From a virus (Duplodnaviria > Heunggongvirae > Uroviricota > Caudoviricetes), in IMG/VR virus record IMGVR_UViG_2627853678_000002, positions 1 to 18,644 of that record: a stretch of 18,644 nt of DNA; one strand, given 5' to 3'. A model generated the notes under the pieces. The model made no database searches. It was not told the DNA's origin and saw only the letters and a program-made list of their open reading frames with translations. Below are positions 3 to 18,644 of this stretch, piece by piece. Position 1 is the first letter of the stretch; every line of letters starts with the position of its first letter. A program made the translations under genes and the position numbers.

Positions 3-320
3 ATGTTATTCAGCGATCTGTTCAAATGTTATTACCCGATCTCGAGGAAGTTATTGAGTGATCTCCATTTCATGAAAATACGCACCAGTGACAGCTTTCA
101 GTTTATTCTCCACGAGAAAAAGAGAGCGGAAAGCGGTAAAAACGCCGGTCAGGAGTGGCTGGCGGTGGTTGGTTATTACCCGAAATTAAGCCAGCTCGTT
201 TCCGGCCTGATGCATCACGATATTCTGACCGGAAGCGCAAAGTCTTTTGCTGATTTAAACGCGCAGGTTGAGCAACTCAGCAAGCGTTGTTCAGAGGCTT
301 TTGGCTCATATGGCCGTTAA
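3..320 (+). CDS. hypothetical protein upstream of the replication gene (position of P2 orf80-83); true start uncertain
   Basis: 105-codon ORF ending 11 nt into gene A; no motif recognised; product not identified. Confidence 0.3.
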   Translation: MLFSDLFKCYYPISRKLLSDLHFMKIRTSDSFQFILHEKKRAESGKNAGQEWLAVVGYYPKLSQLVSGLMHHDILTGSAKSFADLNAQVEQLSKRCSEAFGSYGR

Positions 321-2580
321 AGCCTCCGGGCGTTTTGTCCCTCCGTCAGCATTTGCCGCAGGCACCGGTAAGGCGTTTACCGGTGCTTATGCATGGAACG
401 CGCCACGCGAGGCTGTCGGGCGCGAAAGACCCCTTACACGTGACGAGATGCGTCAGGTGCAAGGTGTTTTATCCACGATTAACCGCCTGCCTTACTTTTT
501 GCGCTCGCTGTTTACTTCACGCTATGACTACATCCGGCGCAATAAAAGCCCGGTGCACGGGTTTTATTTTCTCACATCCACTTTTCAGCGTCGTTTATGG
601 CCGCGCATTGAGCGTGTGAATCAGCGCCATGAAATGAACACCGACGCGTCGTTACTGTTTCTGGCAGAGCGTGACCACTATGCGCGCCTGCCGGGAATGA
701 ATGACAAGGAGCTGAAAAAATTTGCCGCCCGTATCTCATCGCAGCTTTTCATGATGTATGAGGAACTCAGCGATGCCTGGGTGGATGCGCATGGCGAGAA
801 AGAATCGCTGTTTACGGATGAGGCGCAGGCTCACCTGTATGGTCATGTTGCTGGCGCTGCACGAGCTTTCAATATTTCCCCTCTCTACTGGAAAAAATAC
901 CGTAAAGGGCAGATGACCACGAGGCAGGCATATTCTGCCATTGCCCGTCTGTTTAACGATGAGTGGTGGACTCATCAGCTCAAAGGCCAGCGTATGCGCT
1001 GGCATGAAGCGTTACTGATAGCTGTCGGGGAGGTCAATAAAGACCGTTCTCCTTATGCCAGTAAACACGCCATTCGTGATGTGCGTGCGCGTCGCCAGGC
1101 AAATCTGGAATTTCTTAAATCGTGTGACCTTGAAAACAGGGAAACCGGCGAGCGCATCGACCTTATCAGTAAGGTGATGGGCAGTATTTCTAATCCTGAA
1201 ATTCGCCGGATGGAGCTGATGAACACCATTGCCGGTATTGAGCGTTACGCCGCCGCAGAGGGTGATGTGGGGATGTTTATCACGCTGACCGCGCCGTCAA
1301 AGTATCACCCGACACGTCAGGTCAGAAAAGGCGAAAGTAAAACCGTTCAGCTTAATCACGGCTGGAACGATGAGGCATTTAATCCAAAGGATGCGCAGCG
1401 TTATCTCTGCCGCATCTGGAGCCTGATGCGCACGGCATTCAAGGATAATGATTTACAGGTCTACGGTTTGCGTGTCGTCGAGCCACACCACGACGGAACG
1501 CCGCACTGGCATATGATGCTTTTTTGTAATCCACGCCAGCGTAACCAGATTATCGAAATCATGCGTCGCTACGCGCTCAAAGAGGATGGAGACGAAAGAG
1601 GAGCTGCGCGAAACCGTTTTCAGGCAAAACACCTTAACCGGGGCGGTGCTGCGGGATATATCGCGAAATACATTTCAAAAAACATCGACGGCTATGCACT
1701 GGATGGTCAGCTCGATAACGACACCGGCAGGCCGCTGAAAGACACTGCAGCGGCTGTTACCGCATGGGCGTCAACGTGGCGCATCCCGCAATTTAAAACG
1801 GTTGGCCTGCCGACAATGGGGGCTTACCGTGAACTACGCAAATTGCCGCGCGGCGTCAGCATTGCTGATGAGTTTGACGAGCGCGTCGAGGCTGCACGCG
1901 CCGCCGCAGACAGTGGTGATTTTGCGTTGTATATCAGCGCGCAGGGCGGGGCAAATGTCCCGCGCGATTGTCAGACTGTCAGGGTCGCCCGTAGCCCGTC
2001 GGATGACGTTAACGAATACGAGGAAGAGGTCGAGAGAGTGGTCGGCATTTACGCGCCGCATCTCGGCGCGCGTCATATTCATATCACCAGAACGACGGAC
2101 TGGCGCATTGTGCCGAAAGTTCCGGTCGTTGAGCCTTTGACTTTAAAAAGCGGCATCGCCGCGCCTCGGAGTCCTGTCAATAACTGTGGAAAGCTCACCG
2201 GTGGTGATACTTCGTTACCGGCTCCCACACCTTCTGAACATGCCGCAGCCGTGCTTAATCTGGTTGATGACGGTGTTATCGGATGGAATGAGCCAGAGGT
2301 CGTGAGGGCGCTCAGAGGTGCATTAAAACACGGACTGAGAACACCAAATCGTCAGCAAAGAAGCGGAAGCCCGTTAAAACCGCATGAAATAGCGCCATCG
2401 GCCAGACTGACCCGGTCGGAACGAATGCAAATTACCCGTATCCGCGTTGACCTTGCTCAGAACGGTATCAGGCCGCAGCGATGGGAGCTTGAGGCGCTGG
2501 CGCGTGGGGCAACTGTAAATTACGACGGGAGAAGCTTCAGTTATCCTGTTATATGTGATTGGAGAGCGTATGAATTATGA
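310..2580 (+). CDS. A: rolling-circle replication initiation endonuclease gpA (HUH family)
   Basis: Long ORF whose translation from MAVKASGRFVPP matches the remembered P2 gpA N-terminus; contains HUH-like HWHMMLF and the tyrosine motif GYIAKYISKNIDGY. Start placed at ATG 310 rather than the ORF-track start 268. Confidence 0.9.
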   Translation: MAVKASGRFVPPSAFAAGTGKAFTGAYAWNAPREAVGRERPLTRDEMRQVQGVLSTINRLPYFLRSLFTSRYDYIRRNKSPVHGFYFLTSTFQRRLWPRIERVNQRHEMNTDASLLFLAERDHYARLPGMNDKELKKFAARISSQLFMMYEELSDAWVDAHGEKESLFTDEAQAHLYGHVAGAARAFNISPLYWKKYRKGQMTTRQAYSAIARLFNDEWWTHQLKGQRMRWHEALLIAVGEVNKDRSPYASKHAIRDVRARRQANLEFLKSCDLENRETGERIDLISKVMGSISNPEIRRMELMNTIAGIERYAAAEGDVGMFITLTAPSKYHPTRQVRKGESKTVQLNHGWNDEAFNPKDAQRYLCRIWSLMRTAFKDNDLQVYGLRVVEPHHDGTPHWHMMLFCNPRQRNQIIEIMRRYALKEDGDERGAARNRFQAKHLNRGGAAGYIAKYISKNIDGYALDGQLDNDTGRPLKDTAAAVTAWASTWRIPQFKTVGLPTMGAYRELRKLPRGVSIADEFDERVEAARAAADSGDFALYISAQGGANVPRDCQTVRVARSPSDDVNEYEEEVERVVGIYAPHLGARHIHITRTTDWRIVPKVPVVEPLTLKSGIAAPRSPVNNCGKLTGGDTSLPAPTPSEHAAAVLNLVDDGVIGWNEPEVVRALRGALKHGLRTPNRQQRSGSPLKPHEIAPSARLTRSERMQITRIRVDLAQNGIRPQRWELEALARGATVNYDGRSFSYPVICDWRAYEL

Positions 2581-2635
2581 GATTGTGATAAAAAGTAAAT
2601 AATTAATATAATGCAATTGCTTGACTGTTTTAAAA

Positions 2636-2666
2636 GGGACAACGTAGTTGTGAACTATATTGTCCC
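2636..2666. terminator. possible bidirectional hairpin between the convergent 3' ends of gene A and the 351-aa gene
   Basis: Inverted repeat GGGACAA (2636-2642) / TTGTCCC (2660-2666) in AT-rich DNA; on the minus strand it is followed by TTTTAAAA. Stem is short and the loop long, so support is weak. Confidence 0.3.
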
Positions 2667-2673
2667 GGGAGTA

Positions 2674-3729
2674 TTAATTTTTAAATATGGATTGTATGTA
2701 TTCTATAGTGCTATCTTTAGCTCTGATGTCTTTTAAAGTGTTATTTATGAAATCTATTATTCTGTCATTACTTAATAGTGGCGATAACGCATAACATGTT
2801 GTTGTGAATGTCATGACGTCACTAAAGCTTAGTGAAACACCTTTTGTCGCAGCGTTCTCAATCGCAAGAGACTCATCAATATCTAAGTTTGTTGCTCTTG
2901 GCCCTTTAAGGAAGATAACTTTTGAAATCCCGGATGCAGATGCTTTTGAAACGGCGTGATTAACATCTTGATAATTAAATGGTTTGTCTTTCACTTCTAT
3001 AGAAAGGAAAACTATATCATCATGATATACATCTATGTCCAGTATCTCTTTTGAGGAGCTACCGGCCTGATTGACGGGATGTGCTTTTATTATCCATCCT
3101 CTTTGTTCACCTAATAAATGTAACGAAATTGCGGCAGCAATCGCGCATGTTTCTCCATCACAAGGATGAGATATAATATTATAAATAATCTTATGGAAAT
3201 CAAAATTAATTGAGTTCGGCGTTATAACTCTATTGGTTCGCTGTAGGGTAAAATATAATGCAATAACAAGCATTTCATAAGCTAAGGTTTGGGTTGTTGC
3301 TGCATGTAATATATCAATTGAAAGTTGTTGTAAAACCTTATCATTTCCTCTGCGCACAGGGTTATCAGAGGAGTGGAGCATGTAACGAGCTGGTTTATTT
3401 AGAAATGGCTCATTTGATGCGCCTAACTTACCCTCTAAAAATGGGCCTTCTACTTTGCCTACTATTACCGAATGACATAAACTTCTTGCATCATAGGCTC
3501 CGTCTACGGGGGCATTAGCTTGTAAAGCCAGAGGGTTTACTCTAGGGTCTGTTGCTTTTGCAAGTAAACCAGTAATAAGTATATATCTGTATGTAAGGTG
3601 GGTGCCTAAAATTACATTTTGAATGGAGACCCATTGATTATTTGTTTTGTAATCAGTTAATTTTTTTGCATCGTTGATTGCATTTATAATTACATTATAG
3701 GCTTGCTCATGATTTACTAATACTTTCAT
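2674..3729 (-). CDS. uncharacterised 351-aa protein; putative PD-(D/E)xK-type nuclease, candidate restriction/defence effector
   Basis: 351-codon ORF in AT-rich DNA with AAGGA 7-11 nt upstream of the ATG; its start overlaps the 3' end of the upstream HTH gene by 23 nt. Candidate motif ILDIDVYHDD-IVFLSIEVK (D238...E245-x-K247, about nt 2989-3018). No Walker A motif seen. Confidence 0.5.
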   Translation of the reverse strand: MKVLVNHEQAYNVIINAINDAKKLTDYKTNNQWVSIQNVILGTHLTYRYILITGLLAKATDPRVNPLALQANAPVDGAYDARSLCHSVIVGKVEGPFLEGKLGASNEPFLNKPARYMLHSSDNPVRRGNDKVLQQLSIDILHAATTQTLAYEMLVIALYFTLQRTNRVITPNSINFDFHKIIYNIISHPCDGETCAIAAAISLHLLGEQRGWIIKAHPVNQAGSSSKEILDIDVYHDDIVFLSIEVKDKPFNYQDVNHAVSKASASGISKVIFLKGPRATNLDIDESLAIENAATKGVSLSFSDVMTFTTTCYALSPLLSNDRIIDFINNTLKDIRAKDSTIEYIQSIFKN

Positions 3730-4021
3730 AGGTGTCCTTTAGTAAGATATCCATTGGTAGACCTAATCGGCTTGCAACCACCTCTAATAATTCAAATAGT
3801 TCTAAAGCATCTAATCGCCTTTCAAAGCTTTCGATTTTAGATATATCTGATTGTGATAATCCTAGAAAAATGGCCAATTCTGACTGCGAAAGAGAAGCTT
3901 CTTTGCGTAGTTTGGTGAGAAGCTGGACTAGGCACCTGTATCTATGATCATGTATAGTTGGTTGTCGTTTTGCCATGTGGTTTAGAAGGTGATTGATTGT
4001 GTGTCGATCCTTACCTATCAT
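3707..4021 (-). CDS. small helix-turn-helix (XRE-like) transcriptional regulator; candidate controller (C) protein
   Basis: HTH-like segment ASLSQSELAIFLGLSQSDISKIE; sits directly upstream of and overlapping the 351-aa gene and divergent from the methyltransferase. Start ambiguous: ATG at 4021 (104 aa) or ATG at 3976 (89 aa); neither has a clear SD. Confidence 0.7.
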   Translation of the reverse strand: MIGKDRHTINHLLNHMAKRQPTIHDHRYRCLVQLLTKLRKEASLSQSELAIFLGLSQSDISKIESFERRLDALELFELLEVVASRLGLPMDILLKDTYESISKS

Positions 4022-5151
4022 TGGTTTTATTCCAAAATCGAATAATTGGTGCTAAAGAAGTGAACAAAATTTCAGCGGTGAGCTTATTTACTGGGGCAGG
4101 AGGGATGGATGTCGGTTTCTCTAATGCCGGGTTCCGAACAGTTTGGGCCAATGATATAGATAAGGATGCATGTGATACATTTAAGCTTAATCATGAATCA
4201 CCTGTTTTTTGTGGTGATATTGATGAGATGCTAAGTGAATTGTCTGGGCTGAAAAATATAGGTTGTGTTTTTGGTGGGCCTCCATGCCAAGGATTTTCTG
4301 TGGCAGGGAAAATGGACGCTCATGATCCACGTAGTAAGCTGGTTATGTCATTCATGCGGGCGGTGGATATAATTCAACCAGAATGCTTTGTTATGGAGAA
4401 TGTTAAGGCTTTAGCACAGTTGTCCAAATTTGAACCAGTTAGGTGTGAACTGTTTAAGATGGCTGAAAAGTCAGGCTATCGTTCAGCCTTGCTGGTGCTG
4501 AATTCTAAAGATTTTGGCGTTCCTCAGAATAGGGAACGTATGTTTTTTATAGGGTTTCGTTCCGAAAATGATGTGAAACGAGTTGAGGCAGCGATAAAAA
4601 AATACCAATATCTTTCGCCAACAGTTGGTGAGATTATTCGGCCTTTAGGGCGAGCGGGTAATCCAAACAATTCAAGAGTCTGTAATGCAAGGATTACAAA
4701 TGCTGCTAAGCCAGTATTACGGAAGTCACCTTACGCGGGAATGATGTTTAACGGGCAGGGAAGACCAATTAACCCGAATGGGTATGCTTCAACTATAGCT
4801 GCTTCTATGGGGGGGAATAGGACACCAATTATTGATGAAGAACACCTTTATGATGGCTCAACAAGTTATGTTGAGACTTATCATAATCATCTAATGAATG
4901 GTGGTGAGCCAAAAGATATGCACGATGTACCTAGTCGTTTACGTCGACTAACGATAGATGAGGCTCTTTTGATTCAAACATTCCCGAGTAATTATGTCTT
5001 TGTGGGGAAAAATTCGTCAATTTGGCGTCAGATAGGGAATGCTGTGCCTTGTAAATTGGCGCAGGCTGTTGCTGCAGGGGTTTTGGATGTCCTTACTGGT
5101 AAAACTATTAATGTTCAAAAGAGTCAAACAGAGTTGAGTTTGAATTCGTAA
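3997..5151 (+). CDS. DNA (cytosine-5)-methyltransferase
   Basis: Canonical C5-MTase motifs in order: I LFTGAGGMDVGF, IV GGPPCQGFS (Cys codon at 4285-4287), VI FVMENV, VIII QNRERMFFIGF, then a variable region and X RQIGNAVP. The 3997 start is TTG preceded by AGAAGGTGA; an in-frame GTG at 4060 is an alternative. Confidence 0.9.
   Translation: MCVDPYLSLVLFQNRIIGAKEVNKISAVSLFTGAGGMDVGFSNAGFRTVWANDIDKDACDTFKLNHESPVFCGDIDEMLSELSGLKNIGCVFGGPPCQGFSVAGKMDAHDPRSKLVMSFMRAVDIIQPECFVMENVKALAQLSKFEPVRCELFKMAEKSGYRSALLVLNSKDFGVPQNRERMFFIGFRSENDVKRVEAAIKKYQYLSPTVGEIIRPLGRAGNPNNSRVCNARITNAAKPVLRKSPYAGMMFNGQGRPINPNGYASTIAASMGGNRTPIIDEEHLYDGSTSYVETYHNHLMNGGEPKDMHDVPSRLRRLTIDEALLIQTFPSNYVFVGKNSSIWRQIGNAVPCKLAQAVAAGVLDVLTGKTINVQKSQTELSLNS
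4027..4045. promoter_or_regulatory. palindromic operator-like element in the divergent control region
   Basis: Perfect inverted repeat TTATTC-N7-GAATAA, read directly from the sequence, between or overlapping the 5' ends of the HTH gene and the methyltransferase gene. Confidence 0.3.
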
Positions 5152-5307
5152 AACGGATCACATTTTCAAACCGATGGATGCAGAATTTAACATTGCTGCA
5201 TGAGTTTGCATCTTGAAATCATAAGCTGTACTGCTTGGCTTGACCAGAATTGATGTGGGTAAGAAGTGGTTATGCACCCGCATTAAAACCGCCCCATTAA
5301 GCGGGCG

Positions 5308-5326
5308 GGCGAGGCGGGGAAAGCAC
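5308..5326. other. cos: cos site (19-nt cohesive-end sequence of P2-type phages)
   Basis: GGCGAGGCGGGGAAAGCAC matches my recollection of the P2 cohesive end and lies where expected, between the right-end cargo and the 3' end of Q. Confidence 0.6.
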
Positions 5327-5495: not shown

Positions 5496-6529
5496 TCAGT
5501 CGTTGTCAGTGTCCAGTGAGTAGTTTTTAAAGCGGATGACCTCCTGACCGAGCCAGCCGTTTATTTCCCGAATCCTGTCCTGTAACGGGATTAGCTCATT
5601 GCGGACAAAGACCTTTGCCACTTTCTCAATATCGCCCAGTGACCCGACGTTCTCCGGCTTGCCACCCATCAACTGAAAGGGGATGCGGTGTGCGTCCAGC
5701 AGGTCAGCGGCGCTGGCTTTTTTGATATTAAAAAAATCGTCCTTCGTCGCCACTTCACTGAGCGGGATAATTTTAATGCCGTCGGCTTTCCCCTGCGGGG
5801 CATAGAGAAACAGGTTTTTAAAGTTGTTGCGGCCTTTTGACTTCACCATGTTTTCGCGAAGCATTTCGATATCGTTGCGATCCTGCACGGCATCGGTAAC
5901 GTACATGATGTATCCGGCATGTGCGCCGTTTTCGTAATACTTGCGGCGGAACAGCGTGGCCGACTCATTCAGCCAGGCAGAGTTAAGGGCGCTGAGATAT
6001 TCCGGCAGACCGTACAGCTCCTGATTAATATCCGGCTCCAGCAGGTGAAACACGGAGCCGGGCGCGAAAGGTGTCGGCTCGTTAAAGGACGGCACCCACC
6101 AGTAAACATCCTCTTCCACACCACGGCGGGTATATTTTGCCGGTGAGGTTTCCAGCCTGATAACTTTACCGGTGGTGCTGTAACGCTTTTCCAGAAACGC
6201 ATTACCGAACACCAGAAAATCCAGCACAAAGCGGCTGAAATCCTGCTGAGAAAGCCACGGATGCGGGATAAATGTCGAGGCCAGAATATTGCGTTTAACG
6301 TAAATCGGCGAGCTGTGATGCACGGCAGCACGCAGGCTTTTTGCCAGACCGGTAAAGCTGACCGGCGGCTCATACCATCTGCCGTTACTGATGCACTCGA
6401 CGTAATCCAGAATGTCACGGCGGTCGAGTACCGGCACCGGCTCACCAAAGGTGAATGCTCCATTTTCGGGGCGCTGGCGGTCATTGTTTTTGCCACAGGT
6501 TGCGGTGTTTTCCCTTTTTTCTTGCTCAT
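5496..6529 (-). CDS. Q: portal protein gpQ, interrupted by an apparent 1-nt frameshift near 6457-6460
   Basis: Two minus-strand ORFs in different frames (5969..6529 starting MSKKKGKTPQ, and 5496..6437) together span 344 codons, the length of P2 gpQ. The first starts in a TGATG overlap with the terminase stop. Frame switches between ...APKME and AFTFGEPVPVLDRR. Confidence 0.8.
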
Positions 6530-14229: not shown

Positions 14230-14680
14230 GTTTAAGCGTTTTGAAGACCGGCTGACCGGACTGATTGAATCGCTGTCACCGTCAGGGCGTCGGCGACTGG
14301 CGGTAGATATTGCGAAGAAGCTGCGCCAGCGCCAGCAGCAGCGAATTAAATTACAAAAAGCCCCGGATGGTACGCCGTATGTACCGAGAAAAAACCAACC
14401 AGTACGAAATAAGAAAGGCCGGATAAAGCGGGAAATGTTTGTGAAATTACGCACTAACCGGTTTATGAAAGCAACAGGTAGCGAGAGTGCGGCGGTGGTG
14501 GCGTTTGCCAGCGGAGTACAACGAATTGCGCGAGTACATCAATTAGGGCTTAGGGATAAGCCGGGGCGTAATAGTGCTGTGGTGGAATATCCTGTTCGCG
14601 AGTTATTTGGTTTTGACAAGGAATCTATACAATTGATAGAAAGGGAGTTATTAGTGATTCTATCGAAAGATGTTATATGA
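14222..14680 (+). CDS. S: tail completion protein gpS (3' third is more AT-rich, possibly mosaic)
   Basis: 152 aa beginning MNEFKRFEDRLTGLIESLSP in the gpS position; its stop overlaps the next start in ATGA. Confidence 0.8.
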   Translation: MNEFKRFEDRLTGLIESLSPSGRRRLAVDIAKKLRQRQQQRIKLQKAPDGTPYVPRKNQPVRNKKGRIKREMFVKLRTNRFMKATGSESAAVVAFASGVQRIARVHQLGLRDKPGRNSAVVEYPVRELFGFDKESIQLIERELLVILSKDVI

Positions 14681-14973
14681 GACGGGTGTTTGTGGATAAA
14701 AAGTTTTCCATTTTGAGAAAAAGAGTAAAGCATTCTCAAAAGAAAGTTATGGATTGTATTATTGCTGACCATAATGCTGATATATGTGTGTTATGCGGGA
14801 GTTCTGACGATATTACTCGTGAGCACATTATTCCTCAGTGGGCCTTTGAGTCAAATGCTGAAAAATCTTTAATTAATAAAAAGAATAATCAGTCAACTCA
14901 TTACATTAAAGCCACTGTACCAGCATGCAGAGTGTGCAATTCTGATTTGCTGGGAGTGTTTGAGTATACCTGA
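14677..14973 (+). CDS. small HNH-endonuclease-like protein (cargo in the S-V variable locus)
   Basis: 98-aa ORF in AT-rich DNA with an HNH/His-Me-finger-like pattern: CVLC ... REHIIPQW ... NKKNN ... H ... CRVCN. Confidence 0.6.
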   Translation: MRRVFVDKKFSILRKRVKHSQKKVMDCIIADHNADICVLCGSSDDITREHIIPQWAFESNAEKSLINKKNNQSTHYIKATVPACRVCNSDLLGVFEYT

Positions 14974-15041
14974 AGAAATTTCTTACGGAAAAGAGGGGAG
15001 AGGAGTTAACAGATTATGAGTATGATTGCATCATATGGTGG

Positions 15042-15431
15042 TTGCAATACATGGGTTTTAAGTTGCAATTAATGGATTTGCGGAACCGCTTTCTCAGGTA
15101 TAAAGGTGGTGATTATATCCCGTTCCTTGCAAACTTTCCGGTTGCAATGTTTTGGGGGAATGTCGATACGACGCCGGGGGATGTCTTCAGGATTATACGA
15201 AAATCGCGACGCAATCTGATGTCGAAATGGAAGGATAAAAAACATAATTCTTTGATGGTTTTTGAAACATCAAACAAGAGTTTTCATTTCTTTCATAAGG
15301 TTGATGAATTTATTTTTATTGAAATGCCTCAGGTTAAGAAGGCGTTTTTCTTCTTTTTTAATAAAGAATTTGACAGCCATGATTTAGCTCATGAGGAGTG
15401 TATGAAGATTATAGAGAAGTGCTACAACTAA
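15042..15431 (+). CDS. hypothetical protein (cargo in the S-V variable locus)
   Basis: 129-codon ORF in AT-rich DNA, where an open frame of this length is unlikely by chance; the listed start is TTG and ATG at 15051 (GGTGG upstream) is more likely. No motif recognised. Confidence 0.5.
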   Translation: MQYMGFKLQLMDLRNRFLRYKGGDYIPFLANFPVAMFWGNVDTTPGDVFRIIRKSRRNLMSKWKDKKHNSLMVFETSNKSFHFFHKVDEFIFIEMPQVKKAFFFFFNKEFDSHDLAHEECMKIIEKCYN

Positions 15432-15508
15432 TATTTATTATGTTGTATCACAGCTGACAGAATCCTCCATGATTGCTGCTGGTATCGTCCAGCGGCATCC
15501 TTCCCGTT

Positions 15509-17400: not shown

Positions 17401-18004
17401 TTCGCGCCTGCTGCCGACCGGCTCATCACCGCTTGAAATTGCTGCCGCGAAAGCCTGTGCGGAAATTGAAAAAACGCCGGTCAGTATTCGTGAGCTGTGG
17501 AACCCGGACACCTGCCCGGCAAATCTGCTGCCGTGGCTGGCGTGGGCCTTTTCGGTCGACAGGTGGGATGAAAAGTGGCCGGAAGCGACAAAACGCGCCG
17601 TTATCCGCGATGCCTATTTCATCCACTGTCATAAGGGTACTGTCGGCGCAATCCGGCGTGTTGTGGAGCCGCTCGGCTATCTGATTGAAGTGAGGGAGTG
17701 GTGGCAGCTCAACGAGGAGCCGGGGACGTTCCGTATCGTTGTTGGCGTGCTTGAGCAGGGTATTACCGAAGAAATGTATCTGGAGCTGGAACGTCTCGTT
17801 GCTGATGCAAAACCGGCGAGCCGCCATCTGACGGGACTGGCTATCAGTTTAAGTACAACCGGCAACATTTTTGCCGGAACGGGATGCTATCACGGTGACG
17901 CCCTGATGGTTTATCCCTACACCCCGGAGGCCATTATTGTCGGAGGGGATTATTTCCCGGCCTCGGTCATTCATTTAATTGATAACCTGAGAGTAAACGC
18001 ATGA
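17393..18004 (+). CDS. I: baseplate/tail protein gpI
   Basis: 203-aa ORF whose N-terminal part (MSDSRLLPTGSSPLE...) matches the remembered P2 gpI; the C-terminus is longer and different. Confidence 0.8.
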   Translation: MSDSRLLPTGSSPLEIAAAKACAEIEKTPVSIRELWNPDTCPANLLPWLAWAFSVDRWDEKWPEATKRAVIRDAYFIHCHKGTVGAIRRVVEPLGYLIEVREWWQLNEEPGTFRIVVGVLEQGITEEMYLELERLVADAKPASRHLTGLAISLSTTGNIFAGTGCYHGDALMVYPYTPEAIIVGGDYFPASVIHLIDNLRVNA

Positions 18005-18644
18005 CAGTGAAATACTACGCCATTCTGACTAATCAGGGCGCAGCACGACTGGCTAACGCGACGATGCTCGGCAGTAAGCTGAATCTGACGCAAATGGCCG
18101 TTGGTGATGCGAATGGTGTATTACCGACACCAGACCCGGCACAGACAAAACTGATTAACCAGAAACGCATTGCACCGCTGAATCTTCTGAGTGTTGACCC
18201 TAACAATCAGAGCCAGATTATTGCGGAGCAAATTATCCCTGAAAACGAGGGAGGATTCTGGATCCGTGAGATTGGGCTTTATGATGATGAAGGCGTACTC
18301 ATTGCGGTGGCGAACTGCCCGGAAACGTACAAACCGCAGTTGCAGGAAGGCAGTGGTCGTACCCAGACTATCCGCATGATTCTGGTTGTCTCGAATACCG
18401 AAGCCATCACGCTGAAAATCGACCCGTCGGTGGTACTGGCGACCCGTAAATATGTGGATGACAAAATCTCAGAACACGAACAGTCACGACGACACCCGGA
18501 TGCATCGCTGACCGCAAAAGGTTTTACTCAGTTAAGCAGCGCAACCAACAGCACGTCTGAAACACTGGCCGCAACGCTGAGAGCGGTAAAGGTCGCGTAT
18601 GATCTTGCTAACGGGAAATATACTGCACAGGACGCGACCACAGC
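18001..18644 (+). CDS. H: tail fibre protein gpH, N-terminal part (runs off the window end)
   Basis: Open frame from ATG 18001 (ATGA overlap with the I stop) to the window end, translated by hand: MTVKYYAILTNQGAARLANAT...EHEQSRRHPDASLTAKGFTQLSSATNSTSETLAAT, tail-fibre-like. Not in the ORF track because it has no stop. Confidence 0.8.
   Translation, partial: MTVKYYAILTNQGAARLANATMLGSKLNLTQMAVGDANGVLPTPDPAQTKLINQKRIAPLNLLSVDPNNQSQIIAEQIIPENEGGFWIREIGLYDDEGVLIAVANCPETYKPQLQEGSGRTQTIRMILVVSNTEAITLKIDPSVVLATRKYVDDKISEHEQSRRHPDASLTAKGFTQLSSATNSTSETLAATLRAVKVAYDLANGKYTAQDATT

Follow-up and report, generated by a model that had tools for sequence, protein, structure and literature searches.

The locus analysed here raises the question of whether three low-GC genes lying between gene A and cos of a P2-like prophage form an ordinary restriction-modification (R-M) system or a new kind of defence module. 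A sequence-only reading of the window, by which we mean the whole stretch of 18,644 nucleotides, had recognised in them the layout of a type II R-M system with a controller protein (C) and had regarded their 351-aa effector as unrecognised. We conclude, with a probability of about 0.97, that positions 2547-5279 are the type II R-M system EcoT38I, which the prophage carries between gene A and cos as cargo for lysogenic conversion. The EcoT38I cassette is already known and ordinary: the system and its three genes, the way its controller works and the fact that P2 carries it have been in print since 2003. Kita, Kawakami and Tanaka are said to have described the R-M system in that year (J Bacteriol 185:2296) together with its carriage by P2. 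The new detail lies in corrected starts for the C and methyltransferase (M) genes and in a conserved palindromic operator whose two arms are altered symmetrically in a diverged relative.

The gene A-cos slot

The slot and its cargo are delimited by the following features.

310-2580, plus strand: P2 gene A (replication endonuclease), left flank; PF05840 Phage_GPA, E=1.3e-122
2547-5279, no strand: foreign low-GC island, the EcoT38I R-M cassette, in place of P2 orf91-tin-old
5308-5326, plus strand: P2 cos, 19-nt cohesive end, right landmark of the slot; exact match to GGCGAGGCGGGGAAAGCAC, P2 cosL/cosR annotation
5496-6529, minus strand: P2 gene Q (portal), right flank; two overlapping ORFs, Phage_portal match

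In a blastn comparison with reference P2, homology stops at window position 2546 (P2 30270) and restarts at 5280 (P2 33547), and the P2 interval 30271-33546, annotated as orf91, tin and old, is swapped out for the island 2547-5279. The sequence-only reading had correctly named tin and old as the genes that P2 carries here. An island is indeed present at the span it gave, 2581-5151, but against reference P2 the foreign DNA actually covers 2547-5279, and the final 11 codons of gene A come from it. The low GC content of this 2.7-kb island had also been seen correctly, with values of 0.34-0.42 over about 2500-5200 as opposed to 0.51-0.59 in the flanking phage genes. On the left, gene A is 96.6% identical to P2 A at the DNA level, and the RefSeq annotation in MS 124-1 agrees with this assignment. 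On the right, beyond cos, gene Q of the window copy is broken at 6457, where 1 bp is deleted; in MS 124-1 it is an intact 344-aa gene.

The gpA-gpQ slot of P2-like phages is a published anti-phage hotspot (Rousset 2022), in line with the earlier view of this position as a place for anti-phage cargo. It is overwhelmingly filled by anti-phage systems, and P2 old/tin experimentally protected against other phages (Rousset 2022).

Identity of the three genes

Three genes occupy the island.

2674-3729, minus strand: ecoT38IR, R.EcoT38I, 351 aa, SacI family; PDB identity, Pfam and PADLOC
3707-3976, minus strand: ecoT38IC, C protein, 89 aa, Xre-type helix-turn-helix (HTH); 23-nt overlap with the start of R
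4060-5151, plus strand: ecoT38IM, M.EcoT38I, C5-cytosine DNA methyltransferase, 363 aa, GTG start; UniRef, Pfam and motifs

The 351-aa protein is identical at 351 of 351 positions to the chain of PDB entries 7e8r and 7edb, named 'EcoT38I restriction endonuclease'. Against the Pfam profile PF09566 (RE_SacI) it reaches E=1.9e-76 and 258 bits (gathering cut-off 19.3), with residues 4-277 lying on profile positions 4-276 of 276; it also matches the PADLOC profile REase_II PDLC03473 over its full length with 834 bits, and is labelled 'restriction endonuclease, SacI family' in RefSeq. A candidate PD-(D/E)XK motif (D231...E244-V-K246) is kept in a 65%-identical homologue, and codon 15 is AUA, which agrees with a REBASE-derived rare-codon table for EcoT38I. 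The supposedly unrecognised effector is therefore R.EcoT38I, and its family, on whose link to DNA cleavage the proposed R-M identity had been made to depend, is one of restriction endonucleases. That the locus might instead be a new kind of defence system, whose effector is unrecognised and whose arrangement only resembles R-M, is almost certainly wrong: we found no point in its support, and the effector in question is a crystallised and named enzyme with strong matches to both a restriction endonuclease family and a PADLOC type II endonuclease.

The regulator had been proposed to overlap the 351-aa gene, and the respective ORFs, 3707-4021 and 2674-3729 on the minus strand, do share 23 nt. Residues 6-89 of C are identical at 84 of 84 positions to PDB entry 2ef8, which bears the PDB name 'putative transcription factor' and which we take to be C.EcoT38I. 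The protein matches HTH_3 with E=1.8e-6, its matches to PADLOC 'Control_protein' are weak, and none of the classical C proteins of known structure (C.AhdI, C.Esp1396I and others) was matched in a sequence search at E<=0.01. UniRef lists the 89-aa form under Tax=root, consistent with a deposit under a phage taxon. We place the start of C at ATG 3976, where protein conservation among the relatives begins; a 104-aa form starting at ATG 4021 was rejected, because two of four diverged relatives have this ATG in another reading frame, with stop codons in one of them. The layout itself, with a small HTH gene directly upstream of R and in the same orientation, recurs in four diverged relatives. C.EcoT38I is one of the C proteins in REBASE whose genes are preceded by a conserved motif (Sorokin et al.), and the motif class of its box is not stated in the text of that paper.

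The divergent plus-strand gene had been called a C5-cytosine methyltransferase, an assignment that stands for ORF 3997-5151 with the true start at GTG 4060. Its 363-aa product exactly matches UniRef Q83VT0 (Tax=Peduovirus P2), an entry whose name does not contain 'EcoT38I', and it matches PF00145 (DNA_methylase, E=1.3e-66) and TIGR00675, both above their cut-offs, as well as PADLOC MTase_II. The m5C methyltransferase motifs are complete, with FTGAGG (I), PPCQGFS (IV), ENV (VI), QNRER (VIII) and GNAVP (X) at residues 10, 74, 113, 156 and 326. A 384-aa form from TTG 3997 was rejected because the start is conserved as ATG or GTG at the 4060 position in four diverged relatives. Counted from GTG 4060, GGG at codons 12 and 15 agrees with the REBASE-derived EcoT38I table; two further codons of M, GGA at position 14 and GGG at position 24, are a mismatch with the table, which gives only GGG(12,15). 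The distance between the R and M genes is exactly 330 nt.

With R as the EcoT38I enzyme, C as the protein of PDB 2ef8 and M as a complete m5C methyltransferase, the proposed C-controlled type II layout is borne out. So is the suspicion that the system might be an ordinary one, as it is identical to the characterised EcoT38I.

Regulatory region and proposed mechanism

Two features of the R-M intergenic region were identified.

3993-4021, plus strand: putative sigma-70 promoter of M, TTGATT-17-TATCAT; consensus scan 9/12
4027-4045, no strand: candidate C-box operator, perfect palindrome TTATTC-GATTTTG-GAATAA; inverted-repeat search and conservation

The operator core ATTCGATTTTGGAAT is invariant in five systems whose proteins are 60-83% identical, and in one diverged relative, L017, both outer operator positions change symmetrically (ATATTC...GAATAT), so that the palindrome is kept. 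This conservation suggests that C.EcoT38I binds the palindrome TTATTC-N7-GAATAA at 4027-4045. The TTG of the -35 element and the -10 element (TATCAT; TAGCAT in L017) likewise form conserved islands amid variable non-coding DNA, and 3993-4021 probably works as the M promoter. Its predicted transcription start coincides with the left arm of the C-box, the operator lying just downstream of the promoter, and the same site could thus repress M. In the opposite direction, no C/R promoter came out of the scan with the sigma-70 consensus. By eye, a weak TGnTAGGTA element can be read downstream of the operator, about 21 nt from its centre; we make no claim for it.

As for the direction of control, C is said to raise C and R expression and to lower that of M; Kita et al. 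reportedly found in 2003 that it regulates R positively and M negatively. The recognition site of EcoT38I is presumably G(A/G)GC(C/T)^C, with the inner cytosine methylated and the enzyme acting as a homodimer. The papers mentioning EcoT38I were not found to state its recognition sequence, and a search for GRGCYC gave no link to EcoT38I.

On this basis we propose the following hypothetical scheme, in which (i) M.EcoT38I would methylate cytosine within the recognition sites of the host DNA; (ii) R.EcoT38I, as a SacI-family enzyme of the PD-(D/E)XK type, would cut unmethylated sites of incoming DNA; (iii) C.EcoT38I would be co-transcribed with R and bind the palindrome 4027-4045 upstream of both genes; (iv) once the system reaches a new cell, its first product would be M, expressed from the M promoter; (v) the build-up of C would then damp M and turn on C-R transcription, by which restriction would be postponed until the chromosome is protected.

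Distribution and state of the prophage copy

Among 5,426 complete genomes of E. coli, 20 (about 0.4%) contain the island at >=99.7% identity, each time with the replication endonuclease gene A on one side and the portal gene Q on the other. The exact R protein occurs on 986 contigs. Megablast gave no match for the island in the phage-genome collection; what is known of the EcoT38I system there comes from prophages only.

The surrounding prophage is damaged. In the window copy, Q, N, V and the gene in the orf30 slot have lost single bases, and 1.8 kb is deleted at the left end; the MS 124-1 prophage has ISEc12 insertions and a truncated tape-measure gene. Both would fit a cassette that is silent or decaying, a genetic fossil, and EcoT38I has reportedly been found on defective P2 prophages (Kita and co-workers, in 2003). 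The cassette itself points the other way: none of the six differences between the window prophage and MS 124-1 falls inside the island, the three ORFs are intact and identical to characterised proteins, and the conservation in 20 genomes and the number of contigs with the exact R protein speak against decay. Moreover, an intact R without a working M would be lethal, so that decay would be expected in R first, and this is not seen. The defective prophages of TH38 are said to have still expressed R activity. We therefore consider a fossil cassette very improbable and continue to regard the island as an intact EcoT38I system.

GRGCYC sites and the role of the system

The window contains no GRGCYC site where 16 would be expected. 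As proof of the specificity of this copy the absence was rejected, because reference P2, which is free of the system, also has 0 sites; the zero count in the window is thus a property of the lineage. GRGCYC is essentially absent from P2, Wphi, Yersinia phage GMS190, the window prophage and the unrelated satellite P4. Phage 186 retains 17 sites, and a Klebsiella P2-like phage is also not purged. Systems of the EcoT38I family share the A-cos slot and have diverged together with the P2-like backbones that carry them.

If GRGCYC is the EcoT38I site, the loss of sites from P2 and P4 together with this co-divergence might reflect a long-standing association rather than a generic avoidance of palindromes, a reading that we consider possible but doubtful. 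If true, the restriction system could not cut its carrier, its kin or its satellite and would act only on unrelated phages and plasmids, and GRGCYC avoidance would be an evolutionary footprint of the association between phage and cassette. This pattern of site avoidance in P2 and P4 is the sole element of the locus that is perhaps worth a further look.

The main role of the system could also lie in the stabilisation of the prophage by post-segregational killing, as an addiction module, rather than in defence, which would be compatible with the identification as EcoT38I. Type II R-M systems are established as capable of acting as selfish stabilising elements, as Naito, Kusano and Kobayashi reportedly described in 1995. 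Such a role would suit the persistence of the system on defective prophages that are unable to excise or replicate, and, as neither the P2 backbone nor P4 contains a target site, the system cannot defend against close kin. However, the slot holds mostly anti-phage systems, its P2 occupants old and tin are protective in experiments, and site-bearing phages such as 186 would be restricted under the assumed specificity. We regard addiction as the main role as unlikely, and keep to EcoT38I as lysogenic-conversion cargo.

The practical value of this result is one of annotation, since the generic RefSeq labels (SacI-family endonuclease, HTH, cytosine methyltransferase) can be replaced by R, C and M of EcoT38I with corrected starts. 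If the assumed specificity holds, carriers of the island are expected to restrict unmethylated GRGCYC DNA, and this matters for transformation and for work with phages. As a discovery the locus has little weight: crystal structures exist for R and C, and the slot is a textbook defence hotspot.

Comparison with known systems

P2 old/tin and EcoT38I have in common the slot and the role as lysogenic-conversion anti-phage cargo, but old/tin are unrelated to EcoT38I in their proteins and mechanism, and neither tells self from non-self by DNA modification. Old is an abortive-infection nuclease of the ATPase-TOPRIM type, and Tin provides exclusion of T-even phages. SacI (GAGCT^C) belongs to the same endonuclease family, PF09566, as R.EcoT38I; its site is a single sequence out of the four that GRGCYC comprises, whereas the specificity of EcoT38I is degenerate (BanII/HgiJII-type). 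EcoO109I, whose specificity differs from that of EcoT38I, is also distinct in its enzymes and in being located on a satellite P4-like element. It is likewise a C-controlled type II R-M system adjoining cos in a variable hotspot of a P2-associated element (Kita et al. 1999), and its C-box belongs to motif class 8 (Sorokin et al.).

C.EcoT38I is too diverged to match the solved classical C proteins by sequence. C.PvuII, C.AhdI, C.Esp1396I, C.EcoRV and C.EcoO109I are likewise small HTH proteins encoded upstream of R and overlapping it, with a symmetric operator upstream of C and a delayed expression of R as the expected logic. In contrast to the 35-bp double-box motif of the PvuII type, the EcoT38I operator is a single 19-bp palindrome.

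The closest comparison is with EcoT38I itself. Its R, its C (over the crystallised chain) and its M are sequence-identical to the window proteins, R and M stand head to head in both, C lies in the 330 nt between them and overlaps R, and the system sits at the same site between P2 genes A and Q. No difference in the cassette was found, while the surrounding prophage has lesions of its own and the host strain of the window prophage is closest to MS 124-1 rather than to TH38.

EcoT38I cassette in the A-cos-Q slot

The window is a segment of a P2-type prophage whose gene A (Phage_GPA, E=1e-122) runs to 2580 and in which the portal and terminase genes follow on the minus strand from about 5496. Between gene A and the portal gene the GC content is 0.34-0.42, compared with 0.51-0.59 on both sides, and ORF calling places three genes there:

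2674-3729, minus strand, endonuclease ORF of 351 aa
3707-4021, minus strand, HTH protein ORF, overlapping the 351-aa ORF by 23 nt
3997-5151, plus strand, C5-cytosine methyltransferase ORF

In a blastn comparison with reference P2 (AF063097), homology ends at 2546 and restarts at 5280, shortly before an exact copy of the 19-nt cos at 5308-5326; together with the P2 annotation, this shows that orf91-tin-old has been swapped for a 2.7-kb island. The precise breakpoints, the exact cos and the low-GC ORFs thus confirm the low-GC three-gene island that the sequence-only reading had seen between gene A and cos, with the correction that its extent is slightly wider than the proposed 2581-5151.

The same reading had suspected a C-controlled type II restriction-modification (R-M) module with an unrecognised effector. 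The effector is in fact a SacI-family restriction endonuclease (Pfam PF09566, E=1.9e-76), matches the PADLOC REase_II model PDLC03473 end to end (834 bits) and is identical over 351/351 residues to the chains of PDB 7e8r/7edb, deposited as "EcoT38I restriction endonuclease"; Pfam, PADLOC and PDB all place it among restriction endonucleases, not in a family unrelated to DNA cleavage. The HTH protein is identical to PDB 2ef8 (84/84), and the methyltransferase, read from GTG 4060, has 363 aa, carries the m5C motifs I, IV, VI, VIII and X and exactly matches UniRef Q83VT0 (taxon Peduovirus P2). These identities of the endonuclease (R), controller (C) and methyltransferase (M), along with the M / C-R layout, bear out the suspected module.

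Two independent cross-checks agree with this identity. The R and M start codons lie 330 nt apart, the value reportedly given by Kita et al. 2003. A REBASE-derived codon table gives codon 15 of R.EcoT38I as AUA and codons 12 and 15 of M.EcoT38I as GGG, all of which are present in the window when M is read from 4060; outside that table, M in the window also carries GGA (codon 14) and a further GGG (codon 24). C.EcoT38I itself appears in the list by Sorokin et al. of REBASE controller proteins that have a conserved motif upstream. The island is EcoT38I, not a relative, in the same genomic position as in the first description, and its genes, structures, regulation and phage carriage are all already known.

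Distribution of the island and its relatives

Among 5,426 complete E. coli genomes, 20 contain the island at ≥99.7% identity, and there PGAP labels its products as SacI-family endonuclease, HTH protein and DNA cytosine methyltransferase. With the query lengthened into both flanks, all 20 copies lie between the replication endonuclease and portal genes, and P2-type A/Q flanks around other cargo occur in 2,197 genomes. Identical R proteins are recorded on 986 contigs, and the cluster takes in Salmonella entries. That this slot is a site for anti-phage cargo, as had been supposed, accords with Rousset et al. 2022, who call gpA-gpQ a defence hotspot and count 1,650 gene arrangements among 18,150 loci.

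In Wphi (29000-32684), the slot holds mth, annotated as a DNA cytosine methylase, and after it the convergent orf96 and orf98, which may together be another methylase-linked system. Some 'complete' E. coli chromosomes start exactly at P2 gene A, so that the island lies at record position 2272 (H2, H6, H16 and H20 in the island search; H65, H68, H70, H78 and H82 in the flank-extended search); presumably the phage replication initiator was mistaken for the chromosome start gene when software rotated the assemblies.

Two diverged EcoT38I-like cassettes (L015, L016) occupy the gpA-cos-gpQ slot in P2-like phages that share only 76-84% identity with the window in gpA and gpQ. Their presence in the same slot of diverged backbones suggests, from sequence comparison, long residence of the family there. 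A third relative, L008 from the Enterobacteriaceae MAG UBA7338, retains a cos-like site and a gpA fragment.

Proposed regulatory switch

C.EcoT38I is reported to act positively on R and negatively on M. We compared the M-C intergenic region with four relatives, L008 and three cassettes on P2-sized viral contigs (L015-L017), which all share the M / C-R layout and have 60-73% (R), 71-81% (M) and 76-83% (C) identity to the window proteins. The core ATTCGATTTTGGAAT is invariant across the alignment and lies inside a perfect palindrome, TTATTC-N7-GAATAA, at 4027-4045. In L017 the outermost base of both arms is altered symmetrically (ATATTC...GAATAT) and the palindrome is kept, the pattern expected for the operator of a dimeric protein; we infer that 4027-4045 is a candidate C operator.

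The conserved block ATGATAGG is the complement of a TATCAT -10 hexamer and the TTG at -35 is likewise conserved, so that TTGATT-17-TATCAT (3993-4021), reading toward M, is a putative M promoter with a predicted transcription start on the left arm of the palindrome. The M start codon at 4060 is kept as GTG or ATG, and conservation of C coding begins at ATG 3976. ATG 4021 was rejected as the C start: two relatives have it in another frame, and in one stop codons come after it. A sigma-70 consensus scan found no C/R promoter. One operator on the predicted M start and upstream of C and R could repress M, a geometry that would account for possible M repression by the same site. Host sites would be protected by M and unmodified incoming DNA cut by R, as in classical type II R-M.

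Depletion of GRGCYC, the reported recognition site

The reported recognition site of EcoT38I, G(A/G)GC(C/T)^C, in which M.EcoT38I is reported to methylate the inner cytosine, is absent from the 18.6-kb window, where 16.1 ± 4.0 GRGCYC sites are expected.

GRGCYC sites in P2-related phages and satellite P4 (observed; expected)
Reference P2 (33.6 kb): 0; 14-26
Yersinia phage GMS190: 0; 14.5-26.7
Wphi, bases 1-29,000: 1; 14.4-26.7
186: 17; 18.7-27.3
Klebsiella P2-like Kp4882-2: 20; 19.8-30.6
Satellite P4 (11.6 kb): 0; 10.8

The absence is not specific to the EcoT38I carrier, as P2 and GMS190 also have no site. With backbones about 97% identical, P2, Wphi and GMS190 amount to a single lineage, which has 1 site observed versus 79.7 expected, compared with 37 versus 58 in 186 plus Kp4882-2. 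Relative to these two, GRGCYC ranks first of 203 palindromic hexamer classes for depletion in the P2 lineage, which also lacks several other palindromes (GGCGCC, AAGCTT, CTCGAG). The diverged relatives L015 and L016 contain 2-3 sites in 5.3 kb. This lineage-specific loss in P2 and P4 is the only potentially new thread.

State of the prophage and other variable regions

Against the prophage of E. coli MS 124-1, the nearest genome, the window has two substitutions (12107, 18578) and has lost one base at four short homopolymer runs, with a different gene frameshifted each time:

6457, gene Q (portal)
10013, gene N (capsid)
14967, orf30-slot gene
15950, gene V (baseplate)

Such homopolymer deletions suggest indel errors of the assembly; real decay of the genes is possible. 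The island is free of all these differences. At the left end (1-320), the first 84 bases of the window run from immediately upstream of cox into that gene and are followed directly by orf83 (DUF5405). The junction points to the loss of about 1.8 kb with cox, B and orf80-82, and it fuses the two sides into a 105-aa ORF. If real, this deletion would leave the copy defective for excision and replication. In MS 124-1 (L001, 13192-15494 and 41665-42571) the prophage adjoins pflA and is interrupted by two ISEc12 (IS21-family) copies; its tape-measure gene is truncated and it has pseudogenes for tail-fibre assembly. It is therefore a defective P2 prophage, and it retains an intact EcoT38I cassette.

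A second low-GC island (14300-15508, GC 0.35-0.41) lies between S and V, where P2 has orf30, and shows no similarity to reference P2 by blastn. Its MS 124-1 version encodes one 246-aa hypothetical protein, whose only match is a sub-threshold HNH_5 (E=0.0095) and whose gene is broken in the window by the 14967 deletion into ORFs of 98 and 129 aa; this may be a further cargo or defence gene. Within tail-fibre gene H, similarity to P2 is interrupted for about 630 bp (17824-18450) between segments of 95% and 91% identity; this is the usual host-range variable region.

Comparison with known systems

The EcoT38I endonuclease belongs to the RE_SacI family, and its carriage by a P2-like prophage, in the slot that holds old/tin in P2, parallels that of EcoO109I on P4-like satellites. 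C.EcoT38I is too diverged from the classical solved C proteins for a sequence match, and whereas the PvuII type has a 35-bp double-box operator, the candidate operator of EcoT38I is a single 19-bp palindrome.
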